Positions 1,256 to 15,487 of a DNA stretch of 17,604 nt are shown here, piece by piece. The translations under genes were made by a program, and so were the position numbers. The notes under the pieces are model-generated. The model was not told the origin of the DNA. It made no database searches and saw only the letters and a list, made by a program, of their open reading frames with translations. Each line of letters starts with the position of its first letter. Position 1 is the first letter of the stretch. This DNA comes from a virus, in the IMG/VR virus record IMGVR_UViG_3300021400_000219, positions 121,970 through 139,573 of that record; one strand, given 5' to 3'.

Positions 1256-1292
1256 TAAAAATTAAACCCCCAGGGGTTTGGACCCCCTGGGG
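1256..1292 (-). terminator. Intrinsic terminator of the non-coding transcript
   Basis: 9-bp GC stem (CCCCAGGGG/CCCCTGGGG) followed by UUUAAUUUUU on the minus strand. Confidence 0.6.
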
Positions 1293-1586: not shown

Positions 1587-1713
1587 AATTATAGTATAAC
1601 AGATAGGGCCGTATTTGTCAAGGGGTTTTTGAAAAAAATTTAATGGAATTTTCTGGAAGTTGCGCCCGGGCGCGTTAGCCTAAGCTAACTCCCAGATAAA
1701 GGGAAAGCGGGGA

Positions 1714-2843: not shown

Positions 2844-3536
2844 TTATTCCCCCTTTAGAGCCTTTCTATAAACCTGAACTTTACGCCAGCAATTATAAGA
2901 AATAGAATCATCAAAATCAAGGCCAGATTTAATAATTTTCATGTAAATCTGTCTTTCAATGTCCACATCTTCAAGCCCTGTATGTTCTTCAATAAAATCA
3001 GTATTATTAGTGATAAATCTATACGCAATTTCTGCGCTAGTTTGTACGTTGCCACAATCAGAAATAAATCCGTTGCGTTCTGCATAGTTAATAAAAGCGG
3101 GGGTTTTCAAAATAGAACTGCAAGCCATGTTCCAGATGCAAAAATATTCAGTATTATAAGGGAAAAACCAGCGGATAAAAGAACAAGTGATAAAACGTGC
3201 ATCATTATTTGTGGCCCGCTTGTCAAAGCCCATATTATACGCCCCTACTTTATAGGCGTTATACTCTCTCATGTCCGCCCACAAAATACGCCGAATATTT
3301 AACAGCTTTTTCAGGGTTCTTTTACCCTCTTTAATCTGCTCCCAATACTGCGGAATCTTTTCCGCAAAATAAGCGTTCTGCATCATTTCCTTATCAAGGA
3401 AAATTTCAGCCACAACGAAAGAACGCTCGACCAAAATCTCACCAGTGGTATTATCCACAATCTGGTAGCCCACATCATAGGGCAAAGGCTGTTCCACACA
3501 GTTGGCAGTCTCAGTATCAATAATCAGAATATTCAT
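2844..3536 (-). CDS. DEDDh-family (DnaQ-like) 3'-5' exonuclease (230 aa)
   Basis: Exo I motif ILIIDTETAN near the N-terminus and an H-x4-D motif (EHTGLEDVD) near the C-terminus. I set the start to the ATG at 3534-3536, which is preceded by GGGAATTGATACT. The N-terminal extension in the track is a translated promoter and leader. Promoter TTGCAA-16-TATAAT at 3592-3619. Confidence 0.65.
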   Translation of the reverse strand: MNILIIDTETANCVEQPLPYDVGYQIVDNTTGEILVERSFVVAEIFLDKEMMQNAYFAEKIPQYWEQIKEGKRTLKKLLNIRRILWADMREYNAYKVGAYNMGFDKRATNNDARFITCSFIRWFFPYNTEYFCIWNMACSSILKTPAFINYAERNGFISDCGNVQTSAEIAYRFITNNTDFIEEHTGLEDVDIERQIYMKIIKSGLDFDDSISYNCWRKVQVYRKALKGE

Positions 3537-3878: not shown

Positions 3879-4229
3879 CTACTTTCTTTTTTGCGTCAAT
3901 GTCAACTCAAACTTCTTTCCGTCAACCTCAAAAGCAATAACTCTTTCCTTGTTAGTGATTTCAAGGTTATCAACGGAGTTAGTCAGAAAGTTAGCAATTT
4001 CCGCAATCAAATGGCCTTTGGTTTCGTTGGGTTTTCTTTCCCTTTTGGTGAATTTGTAAGCCGTAGGCTTTCTGTCTGCCTGCCTTGCTTTCTTTTCCAC
4101 CTTTTTCTGTTCAGCCGTCAAGGGGAACGGGTCTGCGCCCTTGTCGATTTCTTTATCAGTGGCAATGATTTCCATCGCTTCCTGTTCAGAAATATCAAGG
4201 ACTTTCATCAGTCTTTCCTTTTGGTTCAT
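3879..4229 (-). CDS. Family B protein, paralog 1 of 2 (116 aa), adjacent to a family A gene
   Basis: Start set to the internal ATG (codon 27 of the track ORF), which is preceded by AAGGGGTGATACC and promoter TTGACT-17-TATAAT at 4254-4282. Paralog of 9262..9615 with a shared KK..RQADRKP motif. The TAG stop is part of the TAGGGGGC/GCCCCCTA hairpin. Confidence 0.7.
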   Translation of the reverse strand: MNQKERLMKVLDISEQEAMEIIATDKEIDKGADPFPLTAEQKKVEKKARQADRKPTAYKFTKRERKPNETKGHLIAEIANFLTNSVDNLEITNKERVIAFEVDGKKFELTLTQKRK

Positions 4230-4398: not shown

Positions 4399-4761
4399 TC
4401 AAATGTCCATGGCCTTGAAGTAGGTGACACGCTTGTCAACATACTTGTCAACCATGCCGTTGAGATACAGGGTGCGGAGCAGACCGCTCACCCGCTGGCT
4501 GGTAGCATCTGCCAGCTCAGGCACCCCAGCGCAAATCTCAGAGATGCGGAAACCCTTGTCCGAATCATCCCGCAGGAAATCCAGAATCTTGGAGCGAATG
4601 GCATCGTTTTCCACCTGCTTGGCGGAAGGCTTGCGCTCAGCCGTGGACTTCTTGGCAAAGCCCTCGGCAATCTTTTCCAGCTTCTCCCGCAGGGCAGTTT
4701 CCTCAGCAGGGACGAAAGTCAGGGCCATCTCAATAGCAGTCTTATTAGTCAGCTTAGTCAT
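4399..4761 (-). CDS. Family A winged-helix-like DNA-binding protein, paralog 2 (120 aa)
   Basis: Start set to the ATG at 4759-4761, preceded by AGTGAGTGATACT; the identical context occurs at paralog 4. Promoter TTGACA-17-TATAAT at 4831-4859, with a second promoter TTGCAA-16-TATAAT at 4961-4988. A strong intrinsic terminator (GGCCCCatgtGGGGCC plus UUUUCCUUUUUCU) follows directly after the TGA. Confidence 0.75.
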   Translation of the reverse strand: MTKLTNKTAIEMALTFVPAEETALREKLEKIAEGFAKKSTAERKPSAKQVENDAIRSKILDFLRDDSDKGFRISEICAGVPELADATSQRVSGLLRTLYLNGMVDKYVDKRVTYFKAMDI

Positions 4762-5037
4762 AGTATCACTCACTTTCTCCGTTTTAACGAGTTCGGCTCT
4801 CAATCTTTTGTTTTCCTTTACTGTACTTGTATTATAGCACAGCTTGGGGAGTTTGTCAAGAGGTTTTGAAAACTTTTTTCGGATTATTTTACACCGACCA
4901 TTAACTCTCAAGGAGTGGCTCTCTTTCGCTCGCCGTCCCCAACCCCTCTTGACATTTATTATTATAGCAGATTTCTCCCAAATTGCAAGATGGGATTTTG
5001 CACAAATTAGATTAACTTCTTTTGGTTAAAATGTCAA

Positions 5038-7350: not shown

Positions 7351-7439
7351 TAGAAAATTGAAAAAAATTTAATGGAATTTATTCCCATTTACCCGGGCGC
7401 GTTAGCTGCTGCTAACTCTGGAAGAAAAAGGAAGGGGGA

Positions 7440-7805
7440 TTACTCCCCCTTCACCTGGAAGCGGCTGACCCGCTTCTCCACAACCTTCTCCACGGTTCCA
7501 GCTTCTACCAGCTGGCGCAGAAGGGCGGAAGCCTGCTGGCTGGAAGAGAGTTCCAGTTCGGCGGCTACTTCCTTCGCCTGCATAGGCTCGTGGTCAGTCA
7601 GCAGTTCAACGATGCGGGCCTTGATACCCTCGTTTTCAATCTGCTTCTTGGTGGGCTTGCGCTCGCCCTTGGACTTGGAAGCGTTCCGCTTCTCATAGCT
7701 GGCCTTGCAAGCAACCAGCTTTTCCATGGCTTCCTCGTTGAAGTCAGCGGGCAGGGAAGCAATAGCCATTTCCAGAGCCTTCACATAAGTCATCTTGTTA
7801 GTCAT
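7440..7805 (-). CDS. Family A winged-helix-like DNA-binding protein, paralog 3 (121 aa)
   Basis: Start set to the ATG at 7803-7805 (GGTAGTGCATACT context). The C-terminus (...VEKRVSRFQVKGE) parallels paralog 1. The stop is in the loop of the AAGGGGGA/TCCCCCTT hairpin. Two tandem promoters at 7880-7908 and 8019-8047. Confidence 0.75.
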   Translation of the reverse strand: MTNKMTYVKALEMAIASLPADFNEEAMEKLVACKASYEKRNASKSKGERKPTKKQIENEGIKARIVELLTDHEPMQAKEVAAELELSSSQQASALLRQLVEAGTVEKVVEKRVSRFQVKGE

Positions 7806-9644: not shown

Positions 9645-10019
9645 TTAAACCCCCTCACCCATGGCCTTGAAATAAGTAATGCGCTTATCTACGTACTTAT
9701 CTACCATTCCGTTCAGGTAGAGCGTCCGCAGAAGTCCGCTCACCCTCTGGGAAGTCGCATCGTTCAGAGCGGGAACACCTGCGCAGATTTCAGAGATACG
9801 GAAACCTCTGTCCACATCTTCCCGCAGGAAATCCAGAATTTCCGCACGGACGGCGTCGTTCTCTGCCTGCTTTGCGCTAGGCTTGCGGGGAGCGGTGTTC
9901 TTCTTAATGGCCTGTTCCTTCATCTTCTCCAGCTTTTCCACAACATCCGTCATGTCAGCGGGAACGTAGGACAGAGCAACTTCCAGAGCCTTAACAGTAG
10001 TCATCTTATTGGTAGCCAT
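9645..10019 (-). CDS. Family A winged-helix-like DNA-binding protein, paralog 4 (124 aa)
   Basis: Start at the ATG at 10017-10019 (AGTGAGTGATACT context). It is almost identical to paralog 2 over the C-terminal 70 aa. The TAA stop is in the loop of the GGGGAGGGGG/CCCCCTCACCC hairpin. Tandem promoters at 10073-10101 and 10225-10253. Confidence 0.75.
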   Translation of the reverse strand: MATNKMTTVKALEVALSYVPADMTDVVEKLEKMKEQAIKKNTAPRKPSAKQAENDAVRAEILDFLREDVDRGFRISEICAGVPALNDATSQRVSGLLRTLYLNGMVDKYVDKRITYFKAMGEGV

Positions 10020-10891: not shown

Positions 10892-11341
10892 TTAAAGACC
10901 TCCCAGAACTTCAAGAATATTATTTACATCATAGGCATTTCCGCCTGCATTATTCCATTCAATTCTATTTCTTTCTTCATCATCAAACAGGATGCCGATT
11001 TCATTTACTACGGTACTTTTGGGGGTGCCATAGGAAACAATTTTCACATCATCAAAATGGACGCTTGCCAGATGTTTTTTTAACCACATCTTTTTTGCTT
11101 CTGTTACAACCTTGTTGTAATCGGGGTTATCTTCCTTAGAGAGCCAAGAGACAACACCAATTTTCCATCCAAGGGCCTGTAACTTGTTCAGCTTGTGGGC
11201 CAGCGCAGAAAGCCGAATCAGGGGTTTTGCGATTTCATAGGGAAGGGGATTTCTCTCAATTAGATAGGAGAGCCAATTTTCCACGCCATACAGATCGGCA
11301 ATAGTCCCATCCATGTCGAAATAAATAGCCTTGTTCATCAT
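10892..11341 (-). CDS. HAD-superfamily hydrolase, 5'(3')-nucleotidase-like, paralog 1 (149 aa)
   Basis: Motif I (IYFDMDGTIADL) and motif IV (GILFDDEE). Start set to the ATG at 11339-11341, downstream of promoter TTGACT-17-TATTAT at 11390-11418. The 30-aa N-terminal extension in the track is translated leader. Confidence 0.7.
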   Translation of the reverse strand: MMNKAIYFDMDGTIADLYGVENWLSYLIERNPLPYEIAKPLIRLSALAHKLNKLQALGWKIGVVSWLSKEDNPDYNKVVTEAKKMWLKKHLASVHFDDVKIVSYGTPKSTVVNEIGILFDDEERNRIEWNNAGGNAYDVNNILEVLGGL

Positions 11342-11485
11342 TCTGACCAACCCTTTCTTTAAAAGGTTTTTTATCTTTTCTGTATTATTATAATACCAAA
11401 TTTTTTTATAAAAGTCAATAGGGAATCGCAAATTTTAGAAGTTTGTGCAATTTGCACAAAAGCGCCCGGGCGAGTTACCCTGTGC

Positions 11486-12490: not shown

Positions 12491-12726
12491 CTGAAGCACT
12501 CCCTTTCCTTAGGATGGTTATAGTATAGCACCATTCCCCGGGATAGTCAATACAAAATCGCAAATTTCCCCTTGTGCAAATTATACAAATGTTGGAGCGG
12601 ATTTTTGGGGGCTGTTGTGCAAGTTGCACAATTAGTGTAACCTGGGTCACATTAAAAGTAACAAAAGAGTTACAATCTCTAACAATCAATTACAATCTTT
12701 TTTTTACTTTCAAAACACTTTTTTTA

Positions 12727-12911
12727 AGTTAGCAGTTAGCAAAGGGTAATGCTAGTTAGCACAAGCTAATTGTTGTTAGTTCGAACTAACTCCGGTTAGC
12801 AGGGACTAACTGGAGTTAGCCTAGGCTAACTTTAGCACACTAAAGCTGTAGCGATTTAGCGAACTAAAGTGCGCCGGACCTGGCAATTTGAACAATTAGC
12901 GGCTGCTAACT
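12727..12911. repeat. Array of eight short palindromes of the GTTAGC-N4-6-GCTAAC or TTTAG-N4-CTAAA type
   Basis: Read directly from the sequence: AGTTAGCAGTTAGCA, TTAGCacaaGCTAA, GTTAGTTCGAACTAAC, GGTTAGcagggaCTAAC, AGTTAGCCTAGGCTAACT, CTTTAGcacaCTAAAG, TTTAGcgaaCTAAA, TTAGCggctGCTAA. The same palindrome type sits at nearly every gene junction. Confidence 0.7.
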
Positions 12912-13169
12912 TTGTGCATTTTGACGAGGTTTCGGGATTCGTCAAGTTGCACAAAAATGTAACCAAATTGTAACCAAAATTTGTGCAATTTGACGGTGGC
13001 GCGAACTCGGCTGCCAACGACTGCGCTGGGCCACAGTGCACTCGTTGGCGGCCGGTTCGTCATTTTGCACAAATGCGTGCGTGCGAGGGGCCTTAACTTT
13101 ATGCATTATGACGAAAAAAAATTTTTGTGCAAAATGACGAATCAAATCCTGATTCGTCAAAATGCACAA

Positions 13170-13463
13170 AAAAAGAGGCATTGCCCGGCCTCATCGGGGG
13201 GAAGCTTGACGCCCTTCCCTGGCGGTGGTGTCCACTTTCGGGGACACGCCCGGCTCCGTTTGCTAGCCGCAGGAGCGTCGCGGCGCTGGGGTCGTTCCCT
13301 TGCCCCTTGGGGAACTTGATGGCCTCCATTTCTATCCCGCGGCCTTGGGGGCGGCCTAGCTACTTTGTGGGGAGTATCGCCCACGTTTCGCCGACGCGGC
13401 TGGGATTTTGGTGTCATCGCGCATCCCGTGCGCTCAAGAGGGACAAGTCAACCTCTTTTCTAT
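13170..13463 (-). ncRNA. Candidate GC-rich structured non-coding RNA of about 290 nt
   Basis: Promoter TTGACA-17-TATAAT at 13470-13498 on the minus strand. Intrinsic terminator GAGGC-N8-GCCUC followed by U7, at 13167-13192 in plus coordinates. GC content is far above the window average. There is no SD site and no conserved ORF. It contains a GTGTCCCC-GAAA-GTGGACAC tetraloop hairpin and a GUGGGCGAUACUCCCCAC hairpin. Confidence 0.45.
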
Positions 13464-13540
13464 GGTCTTATTATAGCACCCGCAAGGGGTTTTGTCAAGG
13501 GTTTTTTCTTTTTTTTTTTTTGTTCCCGGAGGGCCGGGGC

Positions 13541-13699
13541 TTAGTAGCCCCAGCCGATGGAGGTTACCCTCCATCCCTCCTCCCGCAGTGCGGGATAAAG
13601 GGCGGCGAAACTCGCCAACCCGTGTTCCCACACACGGGACTCACAGGCCCACAGGCCAGTGAAGAGGTTCCGATGGAACCGGATGTATTCAATTTTCAT
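13541..13699 (-). CDS. Small hypothetical protein (52 aa, W-rich)
   Basis: Internal ATG of track ORF 13541..13816, preceded by AAAGGAGGT. Promoter TTGACA-17-TATAAT at 13720-13748 with the conserved leader GATTACAGTAAAACAAAGGAGG. The TAA stop is in the loop of the GGGGCT/AGCCCC hairpin. Confidence 0.55.
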   Translation of the reverse strand: MKIEYIRFHRNLFTGLWACESRVWEHGLASFAALYPALREEGWRVTSIGWGY

Positions 13700-13759
13700 G
13701 GAAGTGACCTCCTTTGTTTTACTGTAATCATTATAGCAGACCCGCCCGGGTTTGTCAAC

Positions 13760-13925
13760 CCTTTTTTTCATTTTTTTTATTTTTTTTTGGTTCCCCATAC
13801 CCCTCCGGGGAACCACTGGCCGGCTATTTTTTACCTCCCGCCCTAGGGGGTGGCCCTTGGTACTTTGTGGGGTATCTTGCCCACGTTTCCCAGAGGGAGG
13901 GCCCGGAGGGTTTCCCCTCCTGACA
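13760..13925 (-). ncRNA. Second GC-rich non-coding segment, a partial paralog of the 13170-13463 RNA
   Basis: It shares about 30 nt with the other RNA (GAAACGUGGGC.AGAUAC.CCCACAAAGUA). It lies downstream of a weaker promoter, TAGACT-17-TATTAT, at about 13930-13960. It ends in the hairpin GGUUCCCC...GGGGAACC, followed by an A-rich run rather than a U-run. Confidence 0.3.
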
Positions 13926-14007
13926 TGATTATAATACCACAGGCCCGGCTAAAAGTCTATTGACAAATCTCACAAATCGGGATGTTCTATTTTGTGCATT
14001 TTTACTC

Positions 14008-14037
14008 TTGACAGCCGAGCCTATTTTGTGGTATAAT
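14008..14037 (+). promoter_or_regulatory. Plus-strand promoter TTGACA-18-TGgTATAAT, transcribing into GC-rich element B
   Basis: Near-consensus hexamers. The conserved upstream sequence GCATTTTTACTCTTGACA is shared with the promoter at 16916. Confidence 0.55.
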
Positions 14038-14138
14038 ATTTCTGTACTGCCTGCGCGCGCGGTCGCCGGCCGTTAGCGGGGGCTAACTGTGCCTGGGTGT
14101 GCGCCTTTATTGCAATAAAGCACTAAAGTGCACAAGGG

Positions 14139-14171
14139 CAAAAAACTACGAGGATTTTTTAATCCTCGTAG
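14139..14171 (-). terminator. Intrinsic terminator overlapping the stop codon of 14159..14290
   Basis: CUACGAGGAU-UAA-AAAAUCCUCGUAG followed by UUUUUUG. The stop codon is in the loop. Confidence 0.65.
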
Positions 14172-14290
14172 TCAATGGCGATGACCTTCCAGCCCTTGGG
14201 CGGTTCGTAGTTTTCCGGCAGGCCCTTCCAGAGAATCAATTCAGTATCGGCCCACTCTCCATCAATCTTTCTGATTTCAATGCTCCACAT
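14159..14290 (-). CDS. Small hypothetical protein (43 aa)
   Basis: Internal ATG of track ORF 14159..14383. Promoter TTGACA-17-TATAAT at 14343-14371 and a leader of the AAUCAGAAAGAGGGAAGGAAAACC type. The TAA stop is in the loop of terminator ACGAGGAU/AUCCUCGU, followed by UUUUUUG. Confidence 0.5.
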   Translation of the reverse strand: MWSIEIRKIDGEWADTELILWKGLPENYEPPKGWKVIAIDYED

Positions 14291-14385
14291 AATCTTTTTT
14301 CCTTTCTGGTTTGTTAGGTTTTCCTTCCCTCTTTCTGATTGTATTATAGCAGACTCAACCGGGTTTGTCAACCCCTTTTTCAAAT

Positions 14386-14529
14386 TTATTTAATTCTTTT
14401 TACTTTGATAACCTTAGCCCCAGAGTATTCAGCTTTTCCCTCTTTCAGAAATTTGCGGTTAGGATTGACAAGGGTGATGGTAGATTCTTCGCCGCAAAGG
14501 CTGATGGTAATTTCATAAATCTTTTTCAT
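14386..14529 (-). CDS. Small hypothetical protein (47 aa)
   Basis: Hand translation. Promoter TTGACA-17-TATAAT at 14563-14591 has no other ORF downstream of it. GGAAAGGAAA sits before the ATG. Confidence 0.4.
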   Translation of the reverse strand: MKKIYEITISLCGEESTITLVNPNRKFLKEGKAEYSGAKVIKVKRIK

Positions 14530-15022: not shown

Positions 15023-15487
15023 TTACTTCCCTCTCGCCCATGTCAGAACGTCCATAATCATTTCAGGATTGAAGGCCCAACCTTCCATTTCTTCCCACTC
15101 AATCACATTGTTTTCTTCATCGTCAAACAGAATCCCATTTTTCACGGTGGGCACTGTGCTTTTGGGCGTCCCATAGGGAACAATGTTGATTTCATCAAAG
15201 TGAACGCTTGCAAGGTGTTTCTTGAGCCAATTCTTTTTGGCTTCAATAACCTTTTCGTCAAATTCCTTGTTGCTATTCTTAGCTAACCAACTAACTACCC
15301 CGATTGTCCATCCCTTTTTCTGAAGGTTATTCAACCGACGGGCAAGGGCGTTCATGTTTACCAGAGGCTTAGCAACTTCATAGGGGAAGGGATTGTTTTC
15401 CAGTAGATAACCCAGCCAGTTTTCTACGCCGTAGAAGTTGGCGATTGTTCCATCCATGTCAAAGTAGATTGCCCGATTGATTTTCAT
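15023..15487 (-). CDS. HAD-superfamily hydrolase, 5'(3')-nucleotidase-like, paralog 2 (154 aa)
   Basis: IYFDMDGTIANF and GILFDDEE motifs. AAAAGGAG sits 9 nt before the ATG. Promoter TTGACA-16-TATACT at 15519-15546. The TAA stop is in the loop of the GAGGGAA/TTCCCTC hairpin. Confidence 0.75.
   Translation of the reverse strand: MKINRAIYFDMDGTIANFYGVENWLGYLLENNPFPYEVAKPLVNMNALARRLNNLQKKGWTIGVVSWLAKNSNKEFDEKVIEAKKNWLKKHLASVHFDEINIVPYGTPKSTVPTVKNGILFDDEENNVIEWEEMEGWAFNPEMIMDVLTWARGK

Follow-up and report, generated by a model that had tools for sequence, protein, structure and literature searches.

Modular GC-rich RNA genes with a probable pseudoknotted fold, apparently a new family of structured RNAs in large rumen phages

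Introduction

The packaging RNA (pRNA) of phage phi29 is about 120–170 nucleotides (nt) long, is made from a strong early promoter, has a three-way-junction core with covarying loop complementarity, and works as a folded RNA. Other phage non-coding RNAs, such as Racr and the pseudo-ToxI repeats of phage PhiTE, are decoys that titrate a host protein; they are sometimes arranged in tandem, vary between relatives, and are mimics of about 30–45 nt of a specific host RNA repeat. ROOL and GOLLD are orphan GC-rich RNAs of phages and prophages with multistem junctions and pseudoknots (PMC5737381, PMC12286853), and ROOL was first found in cow rumen metagenomes (Weinberg et al. 2017, PMC5737381; Kretsch et al. 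2025, PMC12286853). Here we describe two related GC-rich segments in a stretch of viral DNA of 17,604 nt (positions 121,970 to 139,573 of IMG/VR record IMGVR_UViG_3300021400_000219; hereafter the window, in which positions are counted unless a contig is named). Both segments, segment 1 at 13170–13463 and segment 2 at 13760–13925, are very likely RNA genes, and each contains one copy of a unit of ~116 nt. They represent a new, apparently undescribed family among the orphan structured RNAs of phages.

The RNAs resemble ROOL and GOLLD as GC-rich orphans of phages with a multistem junction and a probable pseudoknot, and, as in GOLLD, their 3′ region is conserved and their 5′ region variable. However, ROOL and GOLLD are about 580 and about 800 nt long, against a 116-nt unit in RNAs of 130–300 nt here, and they have a single conserved multi-junction architecture instead of repeated, exchangeable units with their own promoters. 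They also often lie beside tRNA genes, whereas ARAGORN found no tRNA or tmRNA in the window and no tRNA in 12 related loci. The Rfam pRNA model had no match, and the pRNA of phi29, which is essential for packaging, is encoded near a genome end of a ~20-kb protein-primed podovirus, unlike the large phage described here, which has Herelleviridae-like relatives. The copy number of the units is variable and the locus dispensable, and therefore they do not fit an essential packaging component. In contrast to the pseudo-ToxI and Racr decoys, the units are 116 nt long and mutually diverged, and no bacterial counterpart was detected in one GTDB scan. The tandem, near-identical direct repeats of ~34–45 nt that characterize type III antitoxins (beside an endoRNase toxin gene) and their pseudo-ToxI mimics were not found: the similarity between the two unit copies of the window is 77% over 48 nt, an open reading frame (ORF) and promoters separate them, and a PHROGs scan of the 10 larger window ORFs detected no toxin-like gene. 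A full-text search of the literature on structured RNAs in rumen phages found only the work on ROOL and GOLLD.

Identification of the RNA genes

The GC content reached 66.5% at 13201–13400, compared with a window mean of roughly 42% and roughly 35–45% in most of the window. The initial annotation, a reading of the sequence alone, had described segment 1 as a GC-rich transcript bounded by a consensus promoter and a terminator. Its composition, coordinates and signals were all confirmed, and the promoter match together with the hairpin and U7 tract placed the transcript on the minus strand, to which all features below belong unless stated otherwise. The promoter (13498..13470), TTGACA-17-TGcTATAAT, matched the sigma-70 consensus at 12 of 12 positions, with the TG present. 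Upstream, a putative UP element (an A-tract, read from the sequence) extends to about 13525 (whole feature 13470..13525). The promoter was kept in six of the homologous contigs described below (L037, L039, L040, L045, L046, and L048). The predicted RNA of about 296 nt (13463→13168) comprises a 5′ module, a unit of type T2 and a 3′ tail that ends in a terminator-like site, GAGGC-N8-GCCUC plus U7 (stem 13192–13175, U-tract 13174–13168), recognized as a consensus match.

The 5′ module (13409..13463) contains the hairpins AAGAGG/CCUCUU (13457–13436) and GCGCA/UGCGC (13433–13419); in other unit types it is swapped for unrelated short hairpins or is missing. The 3′ tail module of about 124 nt (13168..13291) has several hairpins with the terminator at its end. 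It was 94–100% identical among close relatives, and a diverged counterpart was found at 3344–3495 of contig L057. Two independent compensatory changes were observed in the tail among the close relatives: GUGUCC/GGACAC became GUGACC/GGUCAC in L043, and GCUCC/GGAGC became GUUCC/GGAAC in L036.

Segment 2 has a weaker promoter (13959..13931; TAGACT-17-TGgTATTAT, 9 of 12 positions, TG present), the sequence of which was identical in all T1 copies. Its predicted RNA (13924→13787, about 138 nt) starts with the hairpin GGAGGG-GAAA-CCCUCC (13920–13905), followed by a unit of type T1. A promoter and terminator scan of the window found no terminator at the end of the segment, and transcription would therefore read into the next promoter and an ORF of 52 amino acids (aa). 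The last hairpin of segment 2 is followed by an A-tract and the perfect promoter of this ORF (13730..13786; promoter 13758..13730). The ORF itself (13541..13699), which has a GGAGG Shine-Dalgarno (SD) site, lies between the two RNA segments and runs into the segment-1 promoter. The CCCUCCGGGG motifs and T-runs that had been noted as flanking segment 2 are present, but they have other identities. The motifs are hairpin arms, belonging to the 5′ hairpin at 13920–13905 and to helix P5 (GGUUCCCC...GGGGAACC, 13814–13789), and the T-runs, when read on the transcribed strand, are UP-element A-tracts that belong to the following minus-strand promoters.

A repeat search of the window revealed a 48-nt match of 77% identity between the segments (13347–13394 and 13847–13894). 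The block of roughly 30 nt that the segments had been said to share is real, and it proved to be part of the ~116-nt unit. Model R1, a covariance model built from a 12-sequence seed alignment folded with RNAalifold (effective sequence number 2.15), detected the T2 copy in segment 1 at 13292–13408 (76.7 bits, E 1.9e-17) and the T1 copy in segment 2 at 13787–13903 (124.5 bits, E 6.2e-29). The window contains exactly these two copies, both full length; the next match, with filters off, scored 7.5 bits.

That the segments are non-coding was borne out: no SD-preceded ORF was present, and no reading frame was conserved among the homologues. ORFs were called mechanically at 13157..13417 (minus, 86 aa), 13099..13329 (minus, 76 aa) and 13127..13846 (plus, 239 aa), and none of those in the RNA segments was preceded by an SD site. 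For the 86-aa sense ORF, the start lies in the 5′ module, which is not conserved, and the frame passes through the terminator. A sense ORF of at least 30 codons was absent in five of the six segment-1 homologues, and that of the diverged L057 copy was unshared. Within unit types, substitutions were spread evenly over the three codon positions (no 3-periodicity), and single-base indels occurred. Antisense ORFs of 169–184 aa, predicted by gene callers in L044, L045, and L048, span non-homologous unit combinations.

Rfam 15 (4227 models, including ROOL, GOLLD, pRNA, 6S, tmRNA, ribozymes, and riboswitches) gave no match at gathering thresholds in the window, nor in eight related loci. Permissive Rfam scans (E≤10 or E≤5) returned chance-level miRNA-type matches and, as the best of all, a sub-threshold match to RAGATH-28 (RF03052) in the 5′ module (22.2 bits against a gathering threshold of 45.3; E 0.3). 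The 5′ hairpin loop GGUUGAcUuGUCCC and the GGCGAA block resemble the RAGATH-28 consensus, but this candidate was rejected, as the matched module is not conserved: it is confined to type T2 RNAs and missing from all other family members. A blastn search of 12600–14400 against GenBank phages found short promoter-like matches only, and five motif scans of IMG/VR gave zero matches or chance matches in coding DNA. One scan of the GTDB species genomes with a T3/T4/T5 motif gave one chance match, which the model did not confirm. The initial annotation had offered either a regulatory small RNA or a novel structured RNA class. The latter agrees with the absence from Rfam and is supported by the covariance model and the alignment folding, whereas the former was too simple, because what is conserved is a multi-helix fold with its junction nucleotides and no single-stranded seed.

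Fold and covariation of the unit

Single-sequence folding was no better than that of shuffles (z = −0.34 and −0.78), so the case for structure rests on comparative data. In the RNAalifold consensus, helix P1 closes a junction with an arm, P1b–P2, and a separate 8-bp hairpin, P5, has a purine-rich loop of 10–11 nt. In the T1 copy, the main helices are P1 (13900–13895/13839–13834), P1b (13892–13890/13860–13858), P2 (13884–13880/13871–13867), and P5 (13814–13807/13796–13789). In the T2 copy, they are P1 (13405–13402/13338–13335, extended by 13397–13396/13340–13339), P1b (13392–13390/13360–13358), P2 (13384–13380/13371–13367), and P5 (13315–13310/13299–13294). The T2 form of P5, GUUCCC/GGGAAC, has 6 bp, and the two outer pairs of the model have no 3′ partner there.

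Over the 25 pairs of the main helices, 97.2% of the cells were paired, compared with 77.2% after shuffling (none of 500 shuffles reached the observed value) and 37–58% when the partner strand was slid. Compensatory changes occurred in 19 of the 25 pairs of P1, P1b, P2, and P5, and in seven of the eight pairs of P5 alone. In P1b, the outer pair (17:55) appeared as U-A, A-U or G-U and the inner pair (19:53) as G-C or C-G, and the middle G-C pair was invariant. The P2 stem covaried from GUGGG/CCCAC through GGGAG/CUCCC and GGAAG/CUUCC to AGAGAG/CUCUCU, the last in the diverged L057 copy. GAAA(C/A) and (A/G)AAGUA, the two strands that link P1b with P2, were conserved throughout the types, the L057 form excepted. 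They match in sequence and orientation the AGUA/GAA pattern, which we take to be that of the sarcin-ricin/loop-E motif, and the internal loop would accordingly be sarcin-ricin/loop-E-like.

Two further helices probably make the unit a pseudoknotted fold. Both would involve a C-rich strand after P1b: P4 pairs its columns 58–61 with a GGCC-like segment downstream, columns 94–97 (GGCC/GGCC; GGCGG/CCGCC in T3 and GYCC/GGGC in T5), and PK pairs columns 62–66 with columns 113–117 in the P5 loop. In the window, P4 corresponds to 13356–13353/13324–13321 in T2 and 13855–13852/13821–13818 in T1, and PK to 13352–13348/13306–13302 in T2 and 13851–13847/13803–13799 in T1. For P4 and PK together, 91.7% of the cells were paired; shuffling gave 81.8%, and sliding the partner strand gave no more than 52%. 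The pair types included CG/GC/UA at 65:114, CG/UA at 66:113 and GC/AU at 62:117. The alignment was not fitted to these helices, because both are absent from model R1. Their rating stays at probable, since they were picked by eye in GC-rich sequence. The P3 hairpin proposed by RNAalifold (columns 65–67/71–73) was rejected: its pairing was 88.9%, it would need an impossible 2-nt loop in T1, and its register was inconsistent between T1 and T3. Both copies of the window appear as regular members of the R1 family, with covarying P1, P1b, P2, and P5, the conserved junction strands and the purine-rich P5 loop.

Distribution and arrangement of the units

A metagenome scan with the shared block led to two contigs, L037 and L036. 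L037 (AUXO01, sheep rumen) was 99.3% identical; L036 was more diverged and carried a segment-1 RNA with a different front half and a back half of 94% identity. About 40 more rumen contigs were found through the exact 52-aa ORF and through homologues of a 150-aa gene beyond the non-coding region. The 150-aa neighbour protein had no IMG/VR relatives and no exact contig, and the protein cluster search placed the 52-aa ORF in only two protein clusters. L037 and L046 are sheep-rumen metagenome DNA (PMC4158751, the source of the AUXO01 and SRR873599 contigs, whose identity to the window at this locus is 99–100%), and the sample names of the other contigs point to cattle and other ruminant datasets. 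The R1 search gave 34 matches, 21 of them distinct, all within one clade of rumen contigs. No units were found by R1 in 29 IMG/VR relatives, for which a gene at 15023–15487 served as anchor (see below), nor in contigs L065–L075 and L086–L096.

There are at least five sequence types of the unit (T1–T5), in addition to the diverged form in a 223.6-kb contig (L056/L057; ERZ919298 scaffold_3). Each locus has one to three units, most of them with their own consensus promoter and UP element. The window, L039, L040, and L046 share the arrangement T1 - ORF - [5′ module-T2-tail], and L048 has the same arrangement plus a T3 unit with its own perfect promoter. In L043, T3 is followed by [T4-tail], and L036 has [T3-tail]. 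Fused units were found in L041 ([T4-T5], in which the terminator is the T5 hairpin P5 plus a U-run) and in L053/L054 ([T3-T5]). An extra module, X, is inserted in L044 (1160–1290), L045 (2500–2630), and L049 (4258–4390), and L057, a 223.6-kb rumen contig, carries the diverged unit plus a tail. In L051/L052, the flanking genes and the DNA palindromes are retained and units are missing altogether. The contig sequences showed that unit types are shuffled between near-identical phages and that the locus is accessory and dispensable in a close relative. A 52-aa ORF was called in L051 at the matching position (judged by position alone) with no unit, and L045 has the ORF with no upstream unit; the ORF is a neighbour and not an obligate partner of the RNA units.

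Possible functions

We propose that host RNA polymerase would make the unit RNAs in large amounts right after infection, and that their fold would then let them work in trans, binding a host (or phage) protein stoichiometrically or serving as its decoy or sponge. Such a role would be part of host takeover or counter-defence. The decoy reading was preferred because of the maximal promoters, the tandem units, the type swapping, the accessory distribution, and the conserved internal loop, which looks protein-platform-like. For modular structured RNA genes combined with a trans-acting decoy or binder mechanism, we put the chance somewhat below even; stoichiometric protein binding, as decoy or sponge, is by itself doubtful. 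It is similarly tentative to regard the new fold as an RNA-based weapon of host takeover or counter-defence that works by sequestering a specific host protein or as a multimeric particle, with the locus as an "RNA accessory island." Sequestering would then involve the sarcin-ricin-like loop and the pseudoknot core, or assembly would involve the covarying loop-strand contacts, and the RNA modules would be exchanged between phages in the way that anti-defence protein genes are.

Several points weigh against the decoy proposal and the structural evidence behind it. The homologues all belong to a single narrow clade of rumen contigs, and the covariation rests on about six paralogous or orthologous lineages, because the clade is narrow and the effective sequence number is 2.15. 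The counts for the main helices were made on a model-fitted alignment, and P4 and PK are pairings of G-runs with C-runs in GC-rich sequence, chosen from the same sequences. Sense-strand G-U pairs outnumbered A-C pairs by 22 to 10, a modest excess that gives a weak, consistent strand signal. The promoters and terminators are known as consensus matches alone. No gene was found to co-vary in presence with the RNA, and no partner protein was identified. Abundance, modularity, and dispensability also fit a self-assembling RNA.

Such self-assembly, in which an RNA-only architecture would arise as units multimerise by loop-loop or palindromic contacts with P4 and PK formed between molecules, is unlikely, and it is the strongest of the alternatives. 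The RNAs would then be minor kin in type to the nanocages of ROOL and GOLLD or to the pRNA ring of phi29. PK and P4 covary, and covariation is blind to whether a contact is intra- or intermolecular; a kissing loop of ROOL that had been predicted as tertiary proved to be quaternary (PMC12286853). Self-complementarity is seen in several of these strands: T1, T2, and T4 have GGCC, and T3 has the 10-nt palindrome GGCGGCCGCC. The RNAs are phage-encoded, GC-rich and presumably abundant, with no protein partner in sight. However, the palindromic character is missing from some unit types, ROOL and GOLLD are far larger RNAs, and neither a match to the ROOL, GOLLD or pRNA models nor tRNA genes nearby were found. 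Self-assembly and the decoy mechanism are inseparable by sequence.

It is less probable that the units act in cis, as structured 5′ or 3′ caps or processing elements that stabilize or regulate the mRNA of the neighbouring small ORF(s). The only terminator is that of segment 1, downstream of the 52-aa ORF, and segment 2, on the upstream side, has none; one transcript can span segment 2, the ORF, and segment 1, because no terminator lies between them. The T1, T2, and T4 leaders also carry a stable, variable 5′ hairpin of the kind typical of 5′-end protection, which T3 does not have. However, units with their own promoters are placed after the ORF, the ORF occurs in L045 with no upstream unit and in L051 and L052 at that position with no units at all, and the fused units in L041, L043, and L053 are far from any ORF. 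The linkage between unit and ORF is broken in L045, L051, L041, and L043, and the fixed place upstream of a regulated gene, with an expression platform, that marks a riboswitch or cis leader was not seen, as the units precede a promoter, another unit or a tail. A conserved pseudoknotted fold with conserved junction nucleotides also exceeds what a stabiliser needs.

A role at an origin or regulatory hub, in which strong transcription or an R-loop primer RNA would activate an adjacent region of iterons and palindromes, is improbable. Dense palindromes follow the terminator at 12700–13170, and about 30 GTTACAA iterons are found there in L057. However, L051 and L052 keep the palindromes in the absence of RNA units, a strong terminator stands between the RNA and the repeats, and priming leaves the covarying pseudoknotted fold and the type swapping unexplained. 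Slightly more improbable is a self-processing or catalytic RNA, each unit being a ribozyme that, for example, cuts multi-unit transcripts into monomers. The compact, pseudoknotted fold of ~116 nt with conserved junction nucleotides and the head-to-tail fusion of units through a 2-nt AC linker (L041, L053) would suit such a role; against it, no Rfam ribozyme family matched even at E≤10, no invariant candidate for a catalytic core was found, and the diverged L057 copy alters the AGUA/GAA loop.

The initial annotation had suggested that the RNA mimics or titrates translation-initiation regions through the GAUAC core of a GUGGGC..GAUAC..CCCCAC hairpin, an idea that fails on two counts, a GAUAC loop that varies between unit types and a GATAC frequency that shows no enrichment; we consider it very improbable. 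GAUAC is present in the P2 loop of both window copies, and GATAC(C/T)ATG spacers were found at five genes. The motif GGTGATACCATG occurs in the window only twice (4238 and 1370), and three looser spacers of ribosome-binding sites, read by eye, contain GATACTATG. However, GATAC was counted 20 times on the minus strand and 11 times on the plus strand; base composition predicts about 19 for either strand. Among the unit types, the P2 loop was variable (CAAGAUAC, CGAUACUC, CGGAACUC, CGGGAAAGC, CGCGCCAUC), and GAUAC is limited to the two types of the window, T1 and T2, since the loop varies freely while the stem covaries. An SD-like sequence (GGAGG) is found in some P5 loops, and in T5 the C-rich strand reads CACCUCCU; however, these SD-like and anti-SD-like strands are predicted partners of one another, and in T2 and T3 the resemblance to an SD site is missing.

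Finally, a small GC-rich protein-coding gene on either strand is hardly credible: the mechanical ORFs of 86, 76, and 239 aa and the antisense calls in L044, L045, and L048 are countered by the absence of SD sites, of an ORF common to the homologues and of third-position bias, by single-base indels, and by covarying helices.

Genomic context

The related contigs are 80–224 kb long. A 295-aa exonuclease-like protein encoded in the window shares about 40% identity with proteins of Enterococcus phages of ~140 kb, the nearest cultured relatives, and the source is a large uncultured phage of the sheep or cattle rumen that is a distant relative of large Enterococcus phages. All credible genes around the segments are minus-strand genes, and a near-perfect sigma-70/sigma-A promoter precedes each of them. 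Across the window, 87 promoter-like sites were counted, compared with 32 expected; about 25 near-perfect minus-strand sites with an extended −10 element amount to roughly one for every small gene. Dozens of small genes, each with a strong promoter of host type, give the window the look of a host-takeover or early region, as is typical for a large Firmicutes phage.

The segment-1 terminator is immediately followed by a dense block of DNA palindromes (12700–13170). TTAGC-N4-GCTAA sites occur there at 12756, 12776, 12796, 12816, and 12896, with 12 more scattered in the window, and inverted repeats TTTGTGCA-N3-TGACGA/TCGTCA-N3-TGCACAAA at 12911/12941, 12980/13059, and 13124/13156. A GC-rich hairpin at 13008–13054 is kept in position but not in sequence among relatives, where TTCGCGCCAC follows it. 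The TTTGTGCA motif was also found upstream of promoters in distant relatives. Its role may be that of an origin or of a regulatory hub with multiple operators, in reference to the whole palindrome block. At the end of the 223.6-kb contig that carries the L057 locus, about 30 tandem GTTACAA/TTGTAAC iterons (4630–4920) lie between the RNA genes and a 146-aa anchor gene. Four paralogous minus-strand genes of ~120 aa (starts 2082, 4761, 7805, and 10019) had weak PHROG matches to MarR-type or other regulators, each with its own consensus promoter and stop-proximal terminator; they are candidate binders of the palindromes. The GC-richer islands at 1700–2100, 4400–4800, 7400–7800, and 9650–10000, considered as further RNAs, were rejected as they are these paralogous protein genes.

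Related phages carry other GC-rich RNAs with promoter and terminator at the same site, and the locus behaves as an island of structured-RNA genes for this reason. These RNAs, of 240 to about 485 nt, are found at 4047–4530 of L057 and at about 1950–2285 and 2350–2590 of L093, and they share with one another and with the X module the blocks GGCUCGUGAAACUCGGUGCCAC, GCGCGGAGUCCUGUUGCGCGG, GGAAGGGGGACGGCAGGAC, and UAUCCCAAUGGC...AAUCAAAAGC. Neither R1 nor Rfam matched the L057 and L093 RNAs, and their resemblance to the unit by eye stays unproven because R1 does not match. The sequences suggest that a wider set of modular phage RNAs may occupy this locus.

On the plus strand, a perfect promoter, TTGACA-18-TGgTATAAT (14008–14037), diverges from the segment-2 promoter. 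A putative plus-strand transcript of about 130 nt (within 14008–14172) contains a GTTAGCGGGGGCTAAC hairpin and runs to a terminator hairpin (14145–14172), and it may be a third small RNA. This hairpin has a T-run on the minus strand only; in L036, where the arrangement is kept, T-runs lie on both sides. Elsewhere in the window, a minus-strand promoter (1621..1593; whole feature 1268–1621) drives a GC-rich leader that starts with AAUUGUUCCAAGGGAGAGGG, similar to the T3 start, and has no R1 match. After the leader come two SD-bearing mini-ORFs of 7 codons, MYYSGFT (1446–1423) and MYPTGFI (1361–1338), and a strong terminator (1292..1268). Two paralogous genes on the minus strand (10892–11431 and 15023–15487) are NT5C-like (5′-3′ deoxyribonucleotidase, phrog_2643), the second being the anchor for the 29 IMG/VR relatives mentioned above.

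Significance

The fold and the organization are new; they are known from a narrow phylogenetic range, and the proposed mechanism is a guess. Expression is directly testable, because public rumen metatranscriptomes (strand-specific sheep-rumen runs SRR873450–SRR873465) come from the same study (PMC4158751) as one homologous contig (AUXO01). At 116–300 nt, the RNAs are a compact target for structure determination and for pull-downs of partners. The architecture is unusual in that exchangeable folded units, most with their own maximal promoter, are shuffled among near-identical rumen phages. If real, an undescribed pseudoknotted fold and a modular GC-rich RNA locus would join the short list of orphan phage RNAs, and RNA rather than protein would serve these phages as an early infection effector.

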